From: Escherichia phage GEP001
Sequence record: PV173775
Length of the DNA stretch: 64,000 nt
Direction: 5' to 3' (one strand)
The notes beneath the pieces were generated by a model. The model was not told where the DNA came from. It saw nothing but the letters and a program-made list of their open reading frames with translations, and searched no databases. A program made the translations under genes and the position numbers. Below, in pieces: positions 3,628-36,537 of the stretch; position 1 is the stretch's first letter, and every line of letters begins with the position of its first letter.

Positions 3628-4008
3628 ATGAAAATCGCTATTTTGGTTATTGCATTGGGTCTTACTGGTTGTGTAGCTCAAGGACCAGTAGTAAATCAGT
3701 CTGATGTAGGAAAAATTGTAAACTGCTCAAGCAAATTTTATAATCCTAATGTTAAGTGTTATAAAGAAGCTCCAAAACAGACAGTAGAACAAATGCAGGC
3801 GAATTTTGACGAAGCTATTCGTCCAGATGAATCTGCCCAAGCATATCGTAATTCAGATGTAATTACACGCGAAGAAAAAATTGAAAGCTACTGCGCTGAA
3901 CTTTGGGCTAATTGGGCTAATAATTACCAATGGCGTACTGGTAAAAATGCTCCGATGGAGTATGTAGTGAATTCTTATAATTCATGTGTAAAAAATTTGA
4001 CTAAGTGA
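3628..4008 (+). CDS. small lipoprotein (imm.1-like), internal start of the 189-codon track ORF
   Basis: MKIAILVIALGLTGC signal peptide with lipobox; the track ORF start at 3439 overlaps gene 43 and includes the promoter, so the Met at 3628 is preferred. Confidence 0.55.
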   Translation: MKIAILVIALGLTGCVAQGPVVNQSDVGKIVNCSSKFYNPNVKCYKEAPKQTVEQMQANFDEAIRPDESAQAYRNSDVITREEKIESYCAELWANWANNYQWRTGKNAPMEYVVNSYNSCVKNLTK

Positions 4009-4015
4009 GGAAAAC

Positions 4016-4267
4016 ATGGAAACTTTAGTAGCAGGTTCAATTTTTATGGTTTTAGTTTCAGGCGTGTTGGCTATTATTATATACATGCTTCCATGGTTCA
4101 TCGCCTTGATGCGTGGGTCAAAATCGACAGTAGGAATCTTTTTCACATCTTTACTGTTTAACTGGTCAATTATTGGTTGGTTTATTACATTTATTTGGTC
4201 AATTGCGGGTGAAACTAAAAAATCTGCACAGCAAAACCAAGTAATTATCATCAGAGAGAAGGAATGA
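4016..4267 (+). CDS. imm: Imm superinfection immunity membrane protein
   Basis: 83 aa, two hydrophobic segments, position between 43 and 42 as in T4. Confidence 0.8.
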   Translation: METLVAGSIFMVLVSGVLAIIIYMLPWFIALMRGSKSTVGIFFTSLLFNWSIIGWFITFIWSIAGETKKSAQQNQVIIIREKE

Positions 4268-4413
4268 AAAGCAAAATTATAGCAGTGTTGCTTTTAATCT
4301 TGATGATTATAATAAGTATATACTATAGTGTAACGGTTCCTCTTATGATTCCAACGCTTATTATAGGGTGGAGTTTATTACTGTTACAAGTTAAATATGA
4401 ATGTATCAATTGA
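4264..4413 (+). CDS. small hydrophobic protein (49 aa)
   Basis: ATG overlaps imm stop (ATGA); MKSKIIAVLLLILMIIISIYYSVTVPLMIPTLIIGWSLLLLQVKYECIN; below the ORF-track size cutoff. Confidence 0.4.
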   Translation: MKSKIIAVLLLILMIIISIYYSVTVPLMIPTLIIGWSLLLLQVKYECIN

Positions 4414-10198: not shown

Positions 10199-10492
10199 AT
10201 GAAAAAATTTATCTTTGCTGCAATTTTTGCTTTATCTTCTTGCGCTGCTCAGCCTGCTATGGCGGGTTATGACAAAGATTTGTGTGAGTGGTCTATGACT
10301 GCAGATCAGACTGAGGTTGAAACTCAGATTGAAGCCGATATTATGAATATCGTTGAGCGTGATCGTCCTGAAATGAAAGCTGAAGTGCAAAAACAACTTA
10401 AGTCTGGTGGTGTAATGCAGTATAATTATGTTCTGTATTGCGATAAAAACTTTAATAATAAAAATATCGTAACCGAAATCACAGGCGAATAA
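10199..10492 (+). CDS. sp: Spackle periplasmic protein (superinfection exclusion, lysozyme inhibitor)
   Basis: 97 aa with N-terminal signal peptide MKKFIFAAIFALSSCAAQPAMA; recognised as T4 Sp. Confidence 0.75.
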   Translation: MKKFIFAAIFALSSCAAQPAMAGYDKDLCEWSMTADQTEVETQIEADIMNIVERDRPEMKAEVQKQLKSGGVMQYNYVLYCDKNFNNKNIVTEITGE

Positions 10493-31395: not shown

Positions 31396-31725
31396 ATGAT
31401 TTATTGTATGAATATCGGTGATTCCGACATAAAAGAGATTAATCTACACGGAAATCATCACGCTAATATTGTGTACTGCAATAAATTTGAGTTTGGTCAC
31501 GAAAAACTTGGGTTTCTTTACTGTAATGATGTTATAGTCATGGATAAAAAGGAACTCGATGAACTCGACCGTGAGTCTTTAGATGAAAATGACAGAATTT
31601 ATTATGGTACTCTTAAAGTATATAACGCTTATCTCAGCGGTAAAAAGGAAAGTCTAAATGCAGAAAACGAATCCGGGTTTACAGAGACTATTTCAGATTC
31701 CGACATTTACCCTATCGAACAATGA
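31396..31725 (+). CDS. hypothetical protein (109 aa)
   Basis: Track ORF; overlaps denB start out of frame. Confidence 0.45.
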   Translation: MIYCMNIGDSDIKEINLHGNHHANIVYCNKFEFGHEKLGFLYCNDVIVMDKKELDELDRESLDENDRIYYGTLKVYNAYLSGKKESLNAENESGFTETISDSDIYPIEQ

Positions 31726-32215
31726 TTTGACTAGTGAAATGAAGGTCAAAATTGCTGATACAGCAAGATACTCTTTAAAACAAAACCCGAACCAGGATAA
31801 AGCAGAAGTTATTGAAAGATGCCGTATCGCTGTGTATGCAGAGTTTTTTGTAGCAGATTGGCTGAGCGGGTATGTTAATAAAGGTCAAGAGGATGTTAAT
31901 GACCCGTATACATATGCGTGGGATGTACTGGCGCATCCAAAATACTGCGGGCTTCGTGTAGAAGTCAAAACACATCAAACTGACTCACGTTGGATTTCGA
32001 TAACAACCGGATGCAGCGGAGAATATCCATACGGTTCTGGAATAAATCTAGGGCCCATTCTGAATCATCAAGTCGCTGACTGTATAATTATATTCAACAC
32101 TAAAGAAATTCATCCAGGTGTCATCCAGTACACTCCGAAGTTCATCGGTGATAGAGAAGACCTTCGCAAGGTTGTAAGAAAAAGCAACTACAACGGATGG
32201 TATCTTTCCATTTAA
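31658..32215 (+). CDS. denB: DenB endonuclease IV (dC-specific)
   Basis: 185 aa, same length as T4 EndoIV; position between rIIB and ndd. Confidence 0.7.
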   Translation: MQKTNPGLQRLFQIPTFTLSNNDLTSEMKVKIADTARYSLKQNPNQDKAEVIERCRIAVYAEFFVADWLSGYVNKGQEDVNDPYTYAWDVLAHPKYCGLRVEVKTHQTDSRWISITTGCSGEYPYGSGINLGPILNHQVADCIIIFNTKEIHPGVIQYTPKFIGDREDLRKVVRKSNYNGWYLSI

Positions 32216-32231
32216 AAATTTTCACAAAACG

Positions 32232-32261
32232 GTTTACATACCACAAGGACCGTGGTACTAT
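32232..32261 (+). promoter_or_regulatory. early promoter (GTTTAC, 18 bp, TACTAT)
   Basis: ggtttacataccacaaggaccgtggtactat. Confidence 0.6.
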
Positions 32262-32288
32262 ACAACTATCAGCTACGGAGGAGTAAAA

Positions 32289-32552
32289 ATGAAATTTAAA
32301 TTTTATTACGCTAAACATAAAATAACTGATGAGTTTGTGTCAGTTGAATATTCTAGCGATGATGAAGGTATGATTTATACTCGCTTGGGACTATCGCATT
32401 GGGAGTCTGATACGCCTTATTTTTCAACTCCTGAAGAAATTACACGCTTAGTTAATGGTCATATGAATGACCACTGGGATGTAATTCTTACAGATAGTCT
32501 TAAAGCGGCTATTAATAGTAATGAAATGAAAATCGCTGAGATTGAACTATGA
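32289..32552 (+). CDS. hypothetical protein (87 aa)
   Basis: Track ORF. Confidence 0.5.
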   Translation: MKFKFYYAKHKITDEFVSVEYSSDDEGMIYTRLGLSHWESDTPYFSTPEEITRLVNGHMNDHWDVILTDSLKAAINSNEMKIAEIEL

Positions 32553-32736
32553 GTTCATTATGGTGGTGTTTTGTTTGGTTAATTAGTATTCCATTAATTT
32601 GTTTAACATTTACTTTTGTGATGAGGTTATTATGAAAATTTTGAATTCTGTACTTATTGCTTGTGCGTGGTGGGTTGCGCAAGTTTCGGCAGTAGTGATT
32701 GGTATTCACATTTATTACGAATATTTTTAAAAAAGT

Positions 32737-32767
32737 TGTTTACAAGACTGTTCCTCTGTGGTACTAT
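32737..32767 (+). promoter_or_regulatory. early promoter (GTTTAC, TACTAT), near-identical copy of the promoter at 3564
   Basis: aaaaagttgtttacaagactgttcctctgtggtactat. Confidence 0.6.
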
Positions 32768-32795
32768 TACCCTATCAACTACGGAGGAACAGAAA

Positions 32796-32909
32796 ATGAA
32801 AAAGATTGTTAAAGCTATATGGAATGTAGTTATAATACTAGTAGTTTTGAGTATATTCCCAATCGTTTTAATGATTGATGTATTAAACGCTTACTTTGGA
32901 TTTATGTGA
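32796..32909 (+). CDS. small membrane peptide (37 aa)
   Basis: ATG after GGAGG RBS; hydrophobic; the track ORF 32661-32909 extends upstream through the promoter. Confidence 0.4.
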   Translation: MKKIVKAIWNVVIILVVLSIFPIVLMIDVLNAYFGFM

Positions 32910-32916
32910 GGAAAAT

Positions 32917-33114
32917 ATGAAGCGTAAACGCAGTGCTTTTACATTTATGGAATGGTTTTTCGATAATATTTTTCCAGCTTTATTCATTTTCATGCTGATT
33001 TTTGCCTTGGGTTCAGTTGTGGTTGGAATCTATTTGATGGCGGTTGTCGGAATGGATATTCACCAAAATGGTTTAAAATCTGTGGTTGAAACAATTTGGA
33101 ATGGTGTAAAATAA
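32917..33114 (+). CDS. small membrane protein (65 aa)
   Basis: GAGGA RBS; two hydrophobic segments. Confidence 0.5.
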   Translation: MKRKRSAFTFMEWFFDNIFPALFIFMLIFALGSVVVGIYLMAVVGMDIHQNGLKSVVETIWNGVK

Positions 33115-33221
33115 TGAATTTACTAAGCATTTGGTTTTATATTCTTGTATTTTACATTGGCGCAAATATCCCATATTGGATGGGATGGTCAACAACTGCA
33201 TTTGGATTTTATACTCCCTGA
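33114..33221 (+). CDS. small membrane peptide (35 aa)
   Basis: ATG overlaps the preceding stop (TAATG); hydrophobic. Confidence 0.3.
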   Translation: MNLLSIWFYILVFYIGANIPYWMGWSTTAFGFYTP

Positions 33222-33229
33222 GGTGAATT

Positions 33230-33445
33230 ATGAAAATTTTTAAAGATGTAAAAGTTGGTGAAATTTTCTGTTTAGATAATGGTGATCAGTTAATTCGTAT
33301 TTCACCTCTTAAGAGCACTAGCGAGAAAATGACAGTTAACTCTACTTTAGCAAATAACAGTAATGAACGTTTCTGTATTGAAAATGATACTGAAACTTAT
33401 ACTGTAGAAGAATTCTGGGAATTAAGTGTCGACTGCGACGATTAA
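33230..33445 (+). CDS. hypothetical protein (71 aa)
   Basis: Track ORF. Confidence 0.5.
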   Translation: MKIFKDVKVGEIFCLDNGDQLIRISPLKSTSEKMTVNSTLANNSNERFCIENDTETYTVEEFWELSVDCDD

Positions 33446-33505
33446 TTTATCGGCCGTATGTATTCATGCGGCCTTGGAGTAGAAAATAATTTAGAGGAAA
33501 TCAAT

Positions 33506-33961
33506 ATGAAATACATGACTGTTACTGATCTGAATAATGCAGGCGCAACTGTTATTGGTACAATCAAGGGCGGTGAATGGGTTTTTGGAACTCCACATAA
33601 AGACATTTTGTCTAACCCTGGATTTTACTTTTTAGTGAGTAAATTTGGTGGTCCATTTGATAGTCCGTGTGTATCTGCGCGATTTTATGTAGGTAATCAG
33701 CGTTCTAAGCAAGGATTCAGCGCAGTTCTAAGTCATATTCGTCAGCGTCGGTCTCAGCTTGCGCGTACTATTGCAAATAACAATGTTCCATACACAGTAT
33801 TTTATCTACCTGCTTCTAAGATGAAACCTCTGACGACAGGATTTGGAAAGGGTCAGTTAGCTTTAGCGTTTACTCGTAATCATCATTCTGAGTATCAAAC
33901 ACTTGAAGAAATGAACCGTATGTTGGCTGATAACTTTAAATTTGTTTTGCAGGCATATTAA
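33506..33961 (+). CDS. ndd: Ndd nucleoid disruption protein
   Basis: 151 aa from internal Met; [25 protein letters not shown]... recognised as T4 Ndd. Confidence 0.85.
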
Positions 33962-34038
33962 TGAGTAATTTCCATAATGAACATGTGATGCAGTTCTATC
34001 GTAACAATCTTAAAACTAAAGGCATCTTCGGACGCTAG
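33961..34038 (+). CDS. stp: Stp peptide (modulator of host EcoprrI/PrrC)
   Basis: 25 codons, [25 protein letters not shown]; ATG overlaps ndd stop; recognised as T4 Stp. Confidence 0.75.
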
Positions 34039-34048
34039 TGAGGAAAAT

Positions 34049-34204
34049 ATGAATATCGCAAAATTATTAGGAGTTATTTCATTTATTTGTTGGATAGTAG
34101 CATGTGTTTTAACTATCTGTATTGATGTCAGCAGCGTGTTTTCGCAAGCTTTAGCTCAGGGTATGTGTGCATGTTTAACATTTGCGTTGTTATCTAATGA
34201 TTAA
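34049..34204 (+). CDS. small membrane protein (51 aa; Ac-like by position)
   Basis: MNIAKLLGVISFICWIVACVLTICIDVSS...; lies between stp and 52 where T4 has ac. Confidence 0.45.
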   Translation: MNIAKLLGVISFICWIVACVLTICIDVSSVFSQALAQGMCACLTFALLSND

Positions 34205-34337
34205 GAAAATCTTGGGCTACTCAGTAGCCCTTGCTGCTTTACTGGTAGCACTATATTATGGAGTAATGTTCGGATTAATTCAAGTCGTGCTTTTCATTTC
34301 TGATGTTATTATGGCACTACATTCACTAGTATGGTAA
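34197..34337 (+). CDS. small membrane peptide (46 aa)
   Basis: ATG overlaps the preceding ORF; hydrophobic. Confidence 0.35.
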   Translation: MIKKILGYSVALAALLVALYYGVMFGLIQVVLFISDVIMALHSLVW

Positions 34338-34341
34338 ATTT

Positions 34342-35670
34342 ATGCAACTGAATAATCGCGATTTAAAAAGTATCATTGATAATGAAGCACTGGCTTATGC
34401 TATGTACACGGTTGAAAATCGTGCTATTCCAAATATGATTGATGGATTTAAGCCAGTCCAACGATTTGTTATTGCTCGAGCTCTTGATTTGGCGCGAGGA
34501 AATAAAGATAAGTTTCACAAACTCGCTTCTATTGCAGGTGGTGTAGCTGACCTTGGATATCATCATGGTGAAAACTCTGCGCAAGACGCGGGGGCTTTGA
34601 TGGCTAATACTTGGAATAATAACTTTCCTTTGTTAGATGGTCAAGGAAACTTTGGTTCTCGTACTGTTCAAAAAGCAGCAGCAAGTCGTTATATTTTTGC
34701 TCGTGTAAGTAAAAATTTCTATAACGTATATAAAGATACTGAATATGCTCCGGTACATCAAGATAAAGAACACATTCCGCCTGCTTTCTATTTGCCTATT
34801 ATTCCTACTGTTCTTCTTAATGGTGTTTCCGGTATTGCAACTGGTTATGCAACTTACATTCTTCCTCATAGTGTTTCTTCTGTTAAGAAAGCTGTATTAC
34901 AAGCTCTTCAAGGAAAGAAAGTAACTAAACCGAAAGTAGAATTCCCAGAATTTCGTGGTGAAGTCGTTGAAATTGACGGTCAATATGAAATTCGTGGAAC
35001 GTACAAGTTTACCTCACGAACCCAAATGAATATCACTGAGATTCCGTATAAGTATGATCGTGAAACTTATGTGAGTAAAATCTTAGACCCGCTTGAAGAT
35101 AAAGGCTTCATTACATGGGATGATGCTTGTGGTGAGCATGGCTTTGGCTTTAAAGTTAAATTCCGTAAAGAATATTCTTTGAGCGATAACGAAGAAGAAC
35201 GTCACGCGAAAATTATGAAAGACTTCGGGTTGATTGAGCGTCGTTCCCAGAATATTACCGTTATTAATGAGAAAGGAAAGCTGCAAGTTTACGATAACGT
35301 AGTTGATTTAATTAAAGACTTTGTTGAAGTTCGTAAAACTTATGTCCAAAAACGAATTGATAATAAAATCAAAGAAACTGAATCAGCATTTCGTTTAGCC
35401 TTTGCCAAGGCACATTTCATTAAGAAAGTGATTTCGGGTGAAATTGTTGTACAAGGTAAAACTCGCAAAGAACTGACCGAAGAACTTTCTAAAATTGAGA
35501 TGTATTCTTCTTATGTTGATAAACTAGTCGGAATGAATATTTTTCATATGACTTCTGATGAAGCAAAGAAACTTGCTGAAGAAGCTAAAGCTAAGAAAGA
35601 AGAAAACGAATATTGGAAAACTACTGATGTAGTTACAGAATACACCAAAGATTTAGAGGAAATCAAATGA
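34342..35670 (+). CDS. 52: DNA topoisomerase II medium subunit gp52 (GyrA-like)
   Basis: 442 aa; recognised as T4 gp52. Confidence 0.95.
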   Translation: MQLNNRDLKSIIDNEALAYAMYTVENRAIPNMIDGFKPVQRFVIARALDLARGNKDKFHKLASIAGGVADLGYHHGENSAQDAGALMANTWNNNFPLLDGQGNFGSRTVQKAAASRYIFARVSKNFYNVYKDTEYAPVHQDKEHIPPAFYLPIIPTVLLNGVSGIATGYATYILPHSVSSVKKAVLQALQGKKVTKPKVEFPEFRGEVVEIDGQYEIRGTYKFTSRTQMNITEIPYKYDRETYVSKILDPLEDKGFITWDDACGEHGFGFKVKFRKEYSLSDNEEERHAKIMKDFGLIERRSQNITVINEKGKLQVYDNVVDLIKDFVEVRKTYVQKRIDNKIKETESAFRLAFAKAHFIKKVISGEIVVQGKTRKELTEELSKIEMYSSYVDKLVGMNIFHMTSDEAKKLAEEAKAKKEENEYWKTTDVVTEYTKDLEEIK

Positions 35671-35816
35671 GTCCATTCATTGGTATTACAAGTGCGGCGT
35701 TAGTATCTGGTAGCATTTTACTGGCGGGTTTAGGCGTTGTTCCAGCCGTAGCAGGAGGTCTTCTTGCGTTCGGCATTCAACGTGTTATCATGACAGTTAT
35801 CACAGTCATGCAGTAA
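35667..35816 (+). CDS. small membrane peptide (49 aa)
   Basis: ATG overlaps gene 52 stop (ATGA); hydrophobic, Gly/Ala-rich. Confidence 0.35.
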   Translation: MSPFIGITSAALVSGSILLAGLGVVPAVAGGLLAFGIQRVIMTVITVMQ

Positions 35817-35822
35817 TTTTAG

Positions 35823-35840
35823 GGAGAGCCTCGGCTCTCC
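35823..35840 (+). other. RNA stem-loop ggagagc-ctcg-gctctcc (no U tract)
   Basis: 7-bp perfect stem read from sequence. Confidence 0.5.
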
Positions 35841-35869
35841 AAAGCATACTGTGGTACTATACAACTATC
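35839..35869 (+). promoter_or_regulatory. motA promoter-like element (TACTAT -10, no GTTTAC); 31-bp copy also at 52406-52436
   Basis: ccaaagcatactgtggtactatacaactatc. Confidence 0.5.
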
Positions 35870-35901
35870 AAATACTGATACAGAATTACGGAGATTAGAA
35901 A

Positions 35902-36537
35902 ATGTCTAAAGTAACTTACATCATCAAAGCTTCTAACGATGTTCTGAATGAAAAAACTGCTGCGATTTTAATTACCATTGCTAAGAAAGATTTCATTACA
36001 GCTGCAGAAGTTCGTGAGGTGCATCCAGATTTAGGTAATGCAGTAGTTAATAGTAATATTGGGGTATTGATTAAAAAAGGCCTAGTGGAGAAATCCGGTG
36101 ATGGATTAATCATTACAGGTGAAGCTCAGGATATTATTTCAAATGCGGCAACTTTATACGCACAGGAAAACGCTCCTGAACTGCTGAAAAAACGAGCAAC
36201 TCGTAAAGCTCGCGAAATTACTTCTGATATGGAAGAAGATAAAGACTTCATGTTAAAACTTTTAGATGAAAATGGATTTGTTCTTAAAAAAGTTGAAACT
36301 TATCGTAGTAACTATCTCGCTATTTTAGAAAAACGCACTCACGGAATTCGCAATTTTGAAATTAACAACAATGGAAATATGCGAATTTTTGGATACAAAA
36401 TGATGGAACATCATATTCAGAAATTTACTGATATCGGAATGTCATGTAAAATCGCTAAAAACGGTAATGTGTATCTTGACATTAAACGCTCGGCAGAAAA
36501 CATTGAAGCTGTAATCACCGTAGCATCTGAACTGTGA
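35902..36537 (+). CDS. motA: MotA middle-transcription activator
   Basis: 211 aa; recognised as T4 MotA. Confidence 0.95.
   Translation: MSKVTYIIKASNDVLNEKTAAILITIAKKDFITAAEVREVHPDLGNAVVNSNIGVLIKKGLVEKSGDGLIITGEAQDIISNAATLYAQENAPELLKKRATRKAREITSDMEEDKDFMLKLLDENGFVLKKVETYRSNYLAILEKRTHGIRNFEINNNGNMRIFGYKMMEHHIQKFTDIGMSCKIAKNGNVYLDIKRSAENIEAVITVASEL

Follow-up and report, generated by a model that had tools for sequence, protein, structure and literature searches.

In the bacteriophage T4 reference genome (NC_000866), the interval from denB to motA contains a series of very small genes, namely ndd.6 (28 amino acids, aa), ndd.5 (32), ndd.4 (42), ndd.3 (26), ndd.2a (40) and ndd.2 (36), followed by ndd.1, ndd, stp, ac (51), 52.1 (46), gene 52 and motA.1 (49). 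Most of the small genes are labelled there as predicted membrane, inner-membrane, outer-membrane or periplasmic proteins. The saΔ9 deletion removes ~3400 bp between genes 52 and rIIB, comprising 52.1, ac, stp, ndd, ndd.1 to ndd.6 and denB; it leaves 50% of the wild-type yield and virtually abolishes post-infection phospholipid synthesis (Kutter et al., PMC6071114). As the same authors consider several products of this region to be membrane-located from their hydrophobic composition, the hydrophobic character of the products is already part of the literature. The genes motA.1, 52.1, ac, stp and ndd.2 to ndd.6 are listed with transcript class 'early' and protein class NA (PMC9697503, Table S2). 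Here we describe the corresponding interval of Escherichia phage GEP001 (record PV173775), in which eight hydrophobic open reading frames (ORFs) of 28–65 aa, all on the + strand, were analysed within a window of 64 kb, this being the whole stretch of DNA under study.

The window represents a T4-like (Tequatrovirus) genome. Megablast with positions 32000–36500 matched 907 phage records, 482 of which cover at least 80% of the query, with a top identity of 97.6%; the matched T4-like phages infect Escherichia, Shigella, Salmonella and Yersinia, and genus-level matches to the region amount to about 480–490 records. Both the megablast neighbours and the T4 annotation place the ORFs in the denB–ndd–52 interval, as the original prediction had assumed. 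On the T4 map, the + strand of the window is the minus strand. Compared with the T4 genes ndd.6 to ndd.2, ac, 52.1 and motA.1 (T4p263–T4p275), the order, the strand and the neighbours (denB ... ndd, stp ... 52, motA) are the same, protein identities amount to 89–100%, and junctions and ribosome-binding sites are alike. Order and strand from denB to motA are also kept in RB32, RB68, HP3 and others. The eight ORFs can thus be assigned by their sequence as orthologs of T4 ndd.6, ndd.5, ndd.4, ndd.3/ndd.2a, ndd.2, ac, 52.1 and motA.1, and the interval very probably represents the 'D region' of a T4-like phage, a dispensable cluster of micro-genes, with ndd.6-to-motA.1 orthologs that include one intact 65-aa gene. 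The genes, their hydrophobicity and their dispensability were all previously in the T4 annotation and literature; the observation is correct, ordinary and already known, and for this reason little is gained from it as a finding.

At least seven tiny hydrophobic ORFs had been reported, and we find eight. The maximum of the Kyte–Doolittle profile over 19 residues is 2.2–3.05 in seven of them and 1.64 in the 35-aa ndd.2 ORF, which has no charged residue at all; charge-free runs of 20–38 residues across the ORFs are sufficient for a bilayer-spanning segment. As a chance control, all ATG-initiated ORFs of 25–75 aa with a hydrophobic maximum of at least 2.0 were collected from the whole window. The + strand contains 22, 8 of them in this 3.3 kb versus ~1.1 expected for an even spread. 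Seven of these are the ORFs claimed, which corresponds to about 7-fold clustering over the window average, and the other (34745–34924) is spurious and lies out of frame within gene 52. A Shine–Dalgarno (SD) motif precedes five of the eight interval ORFs but none of the 14 located elsewhere on the + strand; the - strand holds 13 hydrophobic short ORFs. The run therefore exceeds what composition would give.

The coding capacity of the ORFs was evaluated by tblastn comparison with the homologous interval of 14 phages, comprising eight Tequatroviruses including T4, one Mosigvirus, three Dhakaviruses, the Karamvirus CC31 and one Klebsiella T4-like phage; T4T and T2 (MH751506) were used additionally, for particular checks only. 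Start, stop and frame of all eight ORFs are intact in 8/8 Tequatroviruses. Summed over the eight, variable sites fall 30/18/72 on codon positions 1/2/3 (p about 2e-9), with 2/1/8 in ndd.5, 4/2/19 in the 65-aa gene, 4/4/11 in ndd.2 and 6/3/19 in motA.1. Relative to the window, the ratio of non-synonymous to synonymous change (pN/pS) lies between 0.09 and 0.46 in six of the seven members for which a value was read (0.09 for ndd.5 and for motA.1, 0.22 for ndd.6, 0.38 for 52.1 and 0.46 for ac), the exception being ndd.4. Its within-genus value of 2.45 was not taken as positive selection, because it rests on ~16 conservative I/V/A changes summed over comparisons.

Conservation at the protein level reaches across genera for ac, 52.1, ndd.4 and ndd.6, and for the 65-aa protein in its C-terminal half. 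Ndd.4 retains 58% identity in Dhakavirus and 39% in CC31; for ndd.6 the values are 54% in Mosigvirus and 40–44% in Dhakavirus, and for the C-terminal half of the 65-aa protein 51% in the Klebsiella phage. Every ORF matches a PHROG family (E 3e-17 to 2e-31) over essentially the whole protein and profile. In Pfam, the 65-aa protein matches DUF7248 with 73.4 bits and 52.1 matches DUF7396 with 79.8 bits, each against a gathering cutoff of 27, and NCBIfam holds no model for any of the eight. A tblastn search over all deposited phages, counted for five members, recovered 52.1 in 812 records, ndd.4 in 595, the 65-aa protein in 494, MotA.1 in 492 (all with at least 80% identity) and T4-type Ac in 459. 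No paralogy was found by blastp among the members of the run. Lack of frame conservation in related phages had been named as an outcome that would speak against the prediction; the opposite was found in all sampled Tequatroviruses, and the ORFs are therefore genes. All eight are real protein-coding genes under purifying selection. Their positions are listed in Table 1.

Table 1. Features of the denB–motA interval in the GEP001 window
Feature	Position	Strand	Remarks
Early-promoter-like site	32233..32261	+	TTTACA, 17 nt, TACTAT with TG extension; 5' of 87-aa ORF
87-aa soluble ORF, PHROG 2390	32289..32552	+	Heads the run; context, not a hydrophobic member; ATGA-coupled to ndd.6
ndd.6 ortholog, 28 aa, one hydrophobic segment	32549..32635	+	96% identity to T4; PHROG 8851, E=3e-17
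ndd.5 ortholog, 32 aa, one hydrophobic segment	32632..32730	+	ATG start; GAGG upstream; 97% identity to T4; PHROG 5011
Early-promoter-like site	32739..32767	+	TTTACA, 17 nt, TACTAT, TG; 5' of ndd.4
15-bp stem	32748..32792	+	Promoter spacer/-10 paired with ndd.4 SD; inverted repeat I8
ndd.4 ortholog, 37 aa	32796..32909	+	Basic N-terminus (KK..K), then one predicted transmembrane segment; 92% identity to T4; PHROG 3098
65-aa gene, equivalent to T4 ndd.3 + ndd.2a	32917..33114	+	DUF7248; PHROG 2401
ndd.2 ortholog, 35 aa, aromatic-rich	33114..33221	+	89% identity to T4; PHROG 4135; TAATG join with 65-aa gene
stp, 25 aa, not hydrophobic	33961..34038	+	PrrC-activating peptide gene inside the run (context); 96% identity to T4 Stp
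ac, 51 aa, two hydrophobic segments parted by D26	34049..34204	+	94% identity to T4 Ac; PHROG 2501; GAGGAAAAT site upstream
52.1, 46 aa	34197..34337	+	8-nt overlap with ac; stop 4 nt before gene 52 ATG; DUF7396; PHROG 3595
Gene 52, DNA topoisomerase II medium subunit (context)	34342..35670	+	Coupled micro-ORFs on either side
motA.1, 49 aa, Gly/Ala-rich, hydrophobic	35667..35816	+	ATGA overlap with gene 52; AGAGGAAAT site upstream; PHROG 3487

Despite this overall agreement with T4, several alleles differ. The 65-aa gene, whose product has a KRKR N-terminus, a long hydrophobic core (residues 17–46) and a polar C-terminal tail, is intact in the window, whereas the T4 reference (166432–166628) is one base short in codon 2 (ATGAAGCGT in relatives versus ATGAACGT in T4) and is annotated as two fragments. 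T4 'ndd.3' consists of 26 aa in the +1 frame, and 'ndd.2a' begins at Met26 of the 65-aa gene. The intact 198-nt gene is present in the independently sequenced T4T (166446–166643, annotated as a coding sequence) and in all other sampled phages. Owing to the base missing in codon 2, T4 ndd.3 and ndd.2a are thus two pieces of one gene. Ndd.4 has 37 aa in the window and in T4T, compared with 42 aa in the T4 annotation; the upstream ATG of T4 is created by a C-to-T change within the Shine–Dalgarno site (ACTACGGAGG to ACTATGGAGG), and the 37-aa form is the likelier product. MotA.1 is 100% identical to its T4 counterpart. Stp comprises 25 aa (…KGIFGR) in the window, lacking the terminal Gln and carrying V22I, versus 26 aa in T4; the 25-aa form also occurs in RB68 and the Dhakaviruses.

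The 87-aa ORF at the head of the run is extra in the window, as T4 keeps just its last 10 codons. Among Tequatroviruses it falls into two allele classes, with ~95% and ~52–55% identity, and the spot looks like a cassette-exchange site beside an early-promoter cassette. An unrelated 68-aa gene occupies this site in RB32 and T2, and both genes are present in SF2-1.

The arrangement of starts and stops is compact. Many of the start/stop junctions had been described as overlapping, and this was borne out: ATGA overlaps at 32549 and 32632 connect the 87-aa ORF, ndd.6 and ndd.5, and a further one at 35667 connects gene 52 and motA.1; the 65-aa gene, which follows ndd.4 after a 7-nt gap, joins ndd.2 by a TAATG at 33114, as does ndd with stp; ac and 52.1 overlap by 8 nt (34197–34204), and the 52.1 stop lies 4 nt before gene 52. 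GAGG or GGAGG is found at the proper distance 5' of the ndd.5, ndd.4, 65-aa gene, ac and motA.1 starts. Neither ndd.6 nor 52.1 is preceded by its own SD, and the starts of ndd.6, ndd.2 and 52.1 coincide with the junction to the preceding gene. The cistrons are therefore positioned, as far as can be read from the sequence, for translation either from their own GAGG-type sites or by termination–reinitiation at the ATGA, TAATG and 8-nt overlaps. Promoter and inverted-repeat/repeat scans located two early-promoter-like sites (32233–32261 and 32739–32767), each composed of GTTTACA, 17 nt and TGGTACTAT. The GTGGTACTAT cassette (family D1) is present in three copies, and the third extended -10 element precedes motA. 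From these elements, the cluster is predicted to be transcribed in one direction from T4 early-type promoters.

The closest published counterparts of these cassettes are the PeSL cassettes (PMC2839356, PMC4122927). Both window sites conform to the promoter consensus TTTACW-N17-TAYWAT of the PST/T4 type, followed by GGAGG and ATG, and in the published cases as in the window, promoter, SD and start codon stand before variable small ORFs. The ndd.4/ndd.5 exchange is a published example of PeSL-mediated cassette shuffling, and the interval has been documented as a hot spot for the exchange of accessory genes (Comeau et al., PMC4122927). However, the published stem-loop sits upstream of the promoter, whereas the 15-bp stem of the window spans the promoter spacer/-10 and the ndd.4 SD; for neither window promoter did the terminator and inverted-repeat scans detect a stem in the stretch from the preceding stop codon to the -35 hexamer. 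The 15-bp stem at 32748–32792 folds as RNA with -23.2 kcal/mol (z=-6.1), and 0/200 shuffles were equally good. A stem at the ndd.4 SD is retained with differing, unrelated arm sequences in Dhakavirus and the Karamvirus CC31. In such a model, transcripts from the ndd.4 promoter would lack the 5' arm and keep the SD free, and read-through transcripts from upstream would hide it. No better folding than in shuffles was obtained for the cassettes 32234–32293 and 35833–35905 or for the hairpin-like stp–ac segment 34010–34055 (z = -0.57, -0.05 and -0.36). A 7-bp G+C-rich hairpin (35823–35840, GGAGAGC CUCG GCUCUCC) is located right after the motA.1 stop and just 5' of motA's GTGGTACTAT element. It shows the stem-then-promoter order of PeSL cassettes; no T run follows, and the longer cassette folds no better than shuffles.

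Among the members of the run, 52.1 is the most conserved. It is 94–96% identical to its Dhakavirus counterparts, compared with 81% for gp52 and 63% for Ndd, and its differences are mostly synonymous (3/0/12 by codon position versus JS98, 11/9/24 versus the Mosigvirus and 18/8/24 versus the Klebsiella phage). A search of 5.8 billion proteins yielded only 13 clusters, all of 46–47 aa and all PF24129; their named sources are T4-like phages, with one exception labelled Shigella sonnei. Across 12 cluster representatives, 23 of the 46 positions are invariant. AlphaFold2 models 52.1 as one continuous helix of residues 2–45 with a predicted local distance difference test score (pLDDT) of 96.5, and this monomer model is compatible with a membrane hairpin. 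The gene sits 4–5 nt 5' of gene 52 in five genera: the gap is 4 nt also in the Mosigvirus and in two of the three Dhakaviruses (tblastn-based estimate), and annotated coordinates give 4 nt for the third Dhakavirus and 5 nt for the Klebsiella phage. On its other side, the 8-nt ac/52.1 overlap is found in both Escherichia and Klebsiella phages. This kept adjacency to ac and to gene 52 suggests a partnership.

The only member with a partly worked-out function is ac. Plasmid-expressed Ac renders E. coli ~3 logs more sensitive to acriflavine and also sensitizes it to ampicillin, and T4 becomes acriflavine-resistant either by deletion of ac or by the substitution G38R (bioRxiv 10.1101/2025.06.30.662393). 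On the basis of these phenotypes and a predicted two-helix structure, Ac was proposed to insert in the membrane and to block AcrAB-TolC (10.1101/2025.06.30.662393); a 2026 PNAS paper repeats this blockade as an assumption. Window Ac is 94% identical to T4 Ac, from which it differs by A27V, Y42C and V46A, and both have the two-helix layout with D26 between the helices as well as G38. The window ac gene is thus orthologous to T4 ac and a putative acridine-sensitivity determinant. Two Ac allele types of ~40% identity exist, the T4 type and the RB32 type (RB32 3858–4013); in the alignment, the core CW...T...SV.xQAxAQG, including G38, is conserved across divergent alleles, and its SV.xQAxAQG portion is common to all. 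Both types occur in tandem in F26 (3652–3976) and, by annotation, in phiC600P9 and ESh33; the window has the T4 type only. Among solved structures, none was found to resemble Ac or the 65-aa protein. The motifs LIAC in ndd.5 and IVAC in Ac were considered as lipoprotein signals, a reading that was dropped because ndd.5 would have a signal peptide of just 10 residues and divergent Ac alleles do not retain the Cys.

A cellular protein offers a functional analogy, and only that. E. coli AcrZ is a 49-aa inner-membrane protein that binds AcrB. It resembles Ac in size, in having a transmembrane helix and in the complex that Ac is proposed to target. AcrZ, however, tunes the pump with one helix, whereas the model of Ac has two helices that inhibit it.

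On the basis of these results, each product would be a peptide of 28–65 aa with little beyond one or two predicted membrane-spanning helices. The basic N-termini of ndd.5, ndd.4, the 65-aa protein and 52.1 would face the cytoplasm. We propose, with our judgement about evenly balanced, that within minutes of infection the micro-proteins insert in the inner membrane of the host, where they would bind host envelope machines instead of acting as enzymes. Ac and AcrAB-TolC would provide the single, partly worked example, in which the presence of Ac leads to acriflavine hypersensitivity of infected or expressing cells. The other seven are accessory genes, dispensable under laboratory conditions.

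Several points weigh against this interpretation. Membrane insertion and topology are predictions, and the AcrAB-TolC model for Ac is built on phenotypes and a predicted structure. Peptides from the ORFs had been suggested as a test, yet none of the eight products appears in the liquid chromatography–mass spectrometry data of T4-infected cells, in which Ndd and Ndd.1 were seen as early proteins; P39249 (Ndd.4, 5 kDa) is named there as probably missed owing to its size (PMC9697503). No T4 ribosome-profiling dataset was found in the literature. Within the genus, ndd.4, ndd.6 and 52.1 have too few substitutions to give a codon-position signal by themselves, so that the coding case for these three is cross-genus conservation. 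Finally, T2 (MH751506) carries in-frame stops at codon 11 of ac (2453–2605) and at codon 45 of the 65-aa gene (1308–1502); at least some members can therefore be lost without obvious cost, and the stops fit either dispensability or loss in laboratory stocks. None of these genes is mentioned in the main texts of the papers on phage gene essentiality by CRISPRi-ART and HIDEN-SEQ.

One alternative, which we consider rather unlikely, holds that at least one micro-protein is the T4 factor that sustains host phospholipid synthesis after infection. The defect of saΔ9 is not shared by the partly overlapping deletion rIIΔDD2, and the hydrophobicity of several products of the region was pointed out by the authors themselves (PMC6071114). 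However, the stimulation of phosphatidylglycerol synthesis is also missing in a phage whose only deficiencies are in dCTPase, endonuclease IV (denB) and Alc (PMC6071114), so that part of the phenotype may be due to denB or to an indirect effect. Moreover, motA.1 lies outside saΔ9. Within this framework 52.1 forms the gene-52-proximal end of the deletion. A related and still less likely possibility is that gp52.1 is a constrained membrane partner of its coupled neighbour Ac or of topoisomerase II (gp52). If true, gp52.1 could be the membrane tether of the T4 topoisomerase/replication complex, or the factor behind the lipid phenotype.

It is also conceivable that the act of translation matters and not the peptides, the small cistrons serving as couplers or leaders that bring ribosomes to downstream genes (52.1 to gene 52, and the 87-aa ORF through ndd.6 to ndd.5). 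The tight ATGA, TAATG and 8-nt junctions would suit such a role, as would the missing SDs of ndd.6 and 52.1 and the start of gene 52, which follows the 52.1 stop at a spacing kept in relatives and has no good SD (TATGGTAAATTTATG). Yet the amino-acid sequences are themselves conserved, as seen from the third-position bias and the invariant half of 52.1, point mutation of Ac has a phenotype, and a pure spacer would not retain hydrophobic helices. We therefore regard a purely translational role as improbable.

We are equally sceptical of the proposal that some of the peptides are superinfection-exclusion or resistance determinants directed against secondary phages or host defences. The original prediction had pointed to both kinds of function in T-even micro-membrane proteins; a drug determinant is indeed present in the form of ac, but the exclusion part found no support. 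T4 Imm and Sp are, like the products of the run, early and small envelope proteins, yet they share no sequence similarity with them. The window encodes its own imm (4016–4267) and sp (10199–10492), about 22–28 kb from the run, and no run member resembles either product (at most 21 bits; 15 and 18.5 bits as best blastp scores in a three-sequence database without composition correction). Searches of the PADLOC-DB defence profiles gave no match for seven of the eight. For ndd.4 a 28-residue match to KwaA was obtained (13.8 bits, E=0.0085), which reflects transmembrane-helix composition only and was discarded. The interval is an exchange hot spot (PMC4122927), as is typical of host-interaction genes, and the adjacent stp targets a restriction and anticodon-nuclease system of the host; no exclusion phenotype, however, is reported for saΔ9 in PMC6071114. 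The window imm is also trailed by a strongly hydrophobic 49-aa ORF (4264–4413) that starts at an ATGA overlap with its end, the same arrangement of a micro-membrane gene.

That the run merely consists of chance ORFs, in which AT- or T-rich sequence happens to encode frames rich in Phe, Leu, Ile and Val, is almost certainly wrong: background hydrophobic short ORFs do exist in the window on both strands and within gene 52, but they lack the SD and coupling junctions of the run and its clustering, and the frames kept across genera, with third-position bias and matches to curated families, refute this view.

For T4-like phages as a group, the practical value of the locus lies in annotation. The micro-genes are inconsistently annotated over hundreds of deposited genomes, with 52.1, ndd.6 and stp often absent, and the split gene persists in the T4 reference although it is intact elsewhere. 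Most of the ORFs had been expected to fall below the cutoffs of ORF callers. This holds in part: the RB32 record describes stp and 52.1 as 'not predicted by GeneMarkS or Glimmer', ndd.6, stp or 52.1 are left out of several retrieved records, and 52.1 has no coding sequence in 11 of 29 annotated records of an even sample; the T4 reference, in contrast, annotates all of them. Beyond annotation, Ac is relevant to the dealings of phages with efflux pumps and DNA-intercalating drugs, and a lipid-synthesis phenotype maps to the interval as a whole.

Product misnomers have spread through the records. They give motA.1 as 'flagellar motor protein MotA' or 'transcriptional regulator', ndd and ndd.1 as 'naphthalene 1,2-dioxygenase', ndd.2 as 'chaperone for long tail fiber formation', and T4 dexA.2 as 'dextranase'; these misnomers trace to confused gene names. 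Upstream of the run, a 109-aa ORF (31396–31725) that has no counterpart in the T4 annotation runs into denB, which starts at 31658. In RB32 the denB-overlap position is occupied by an ORF of equal length (RB32ORF268c), and slur03 has an ORF at the matching spot.

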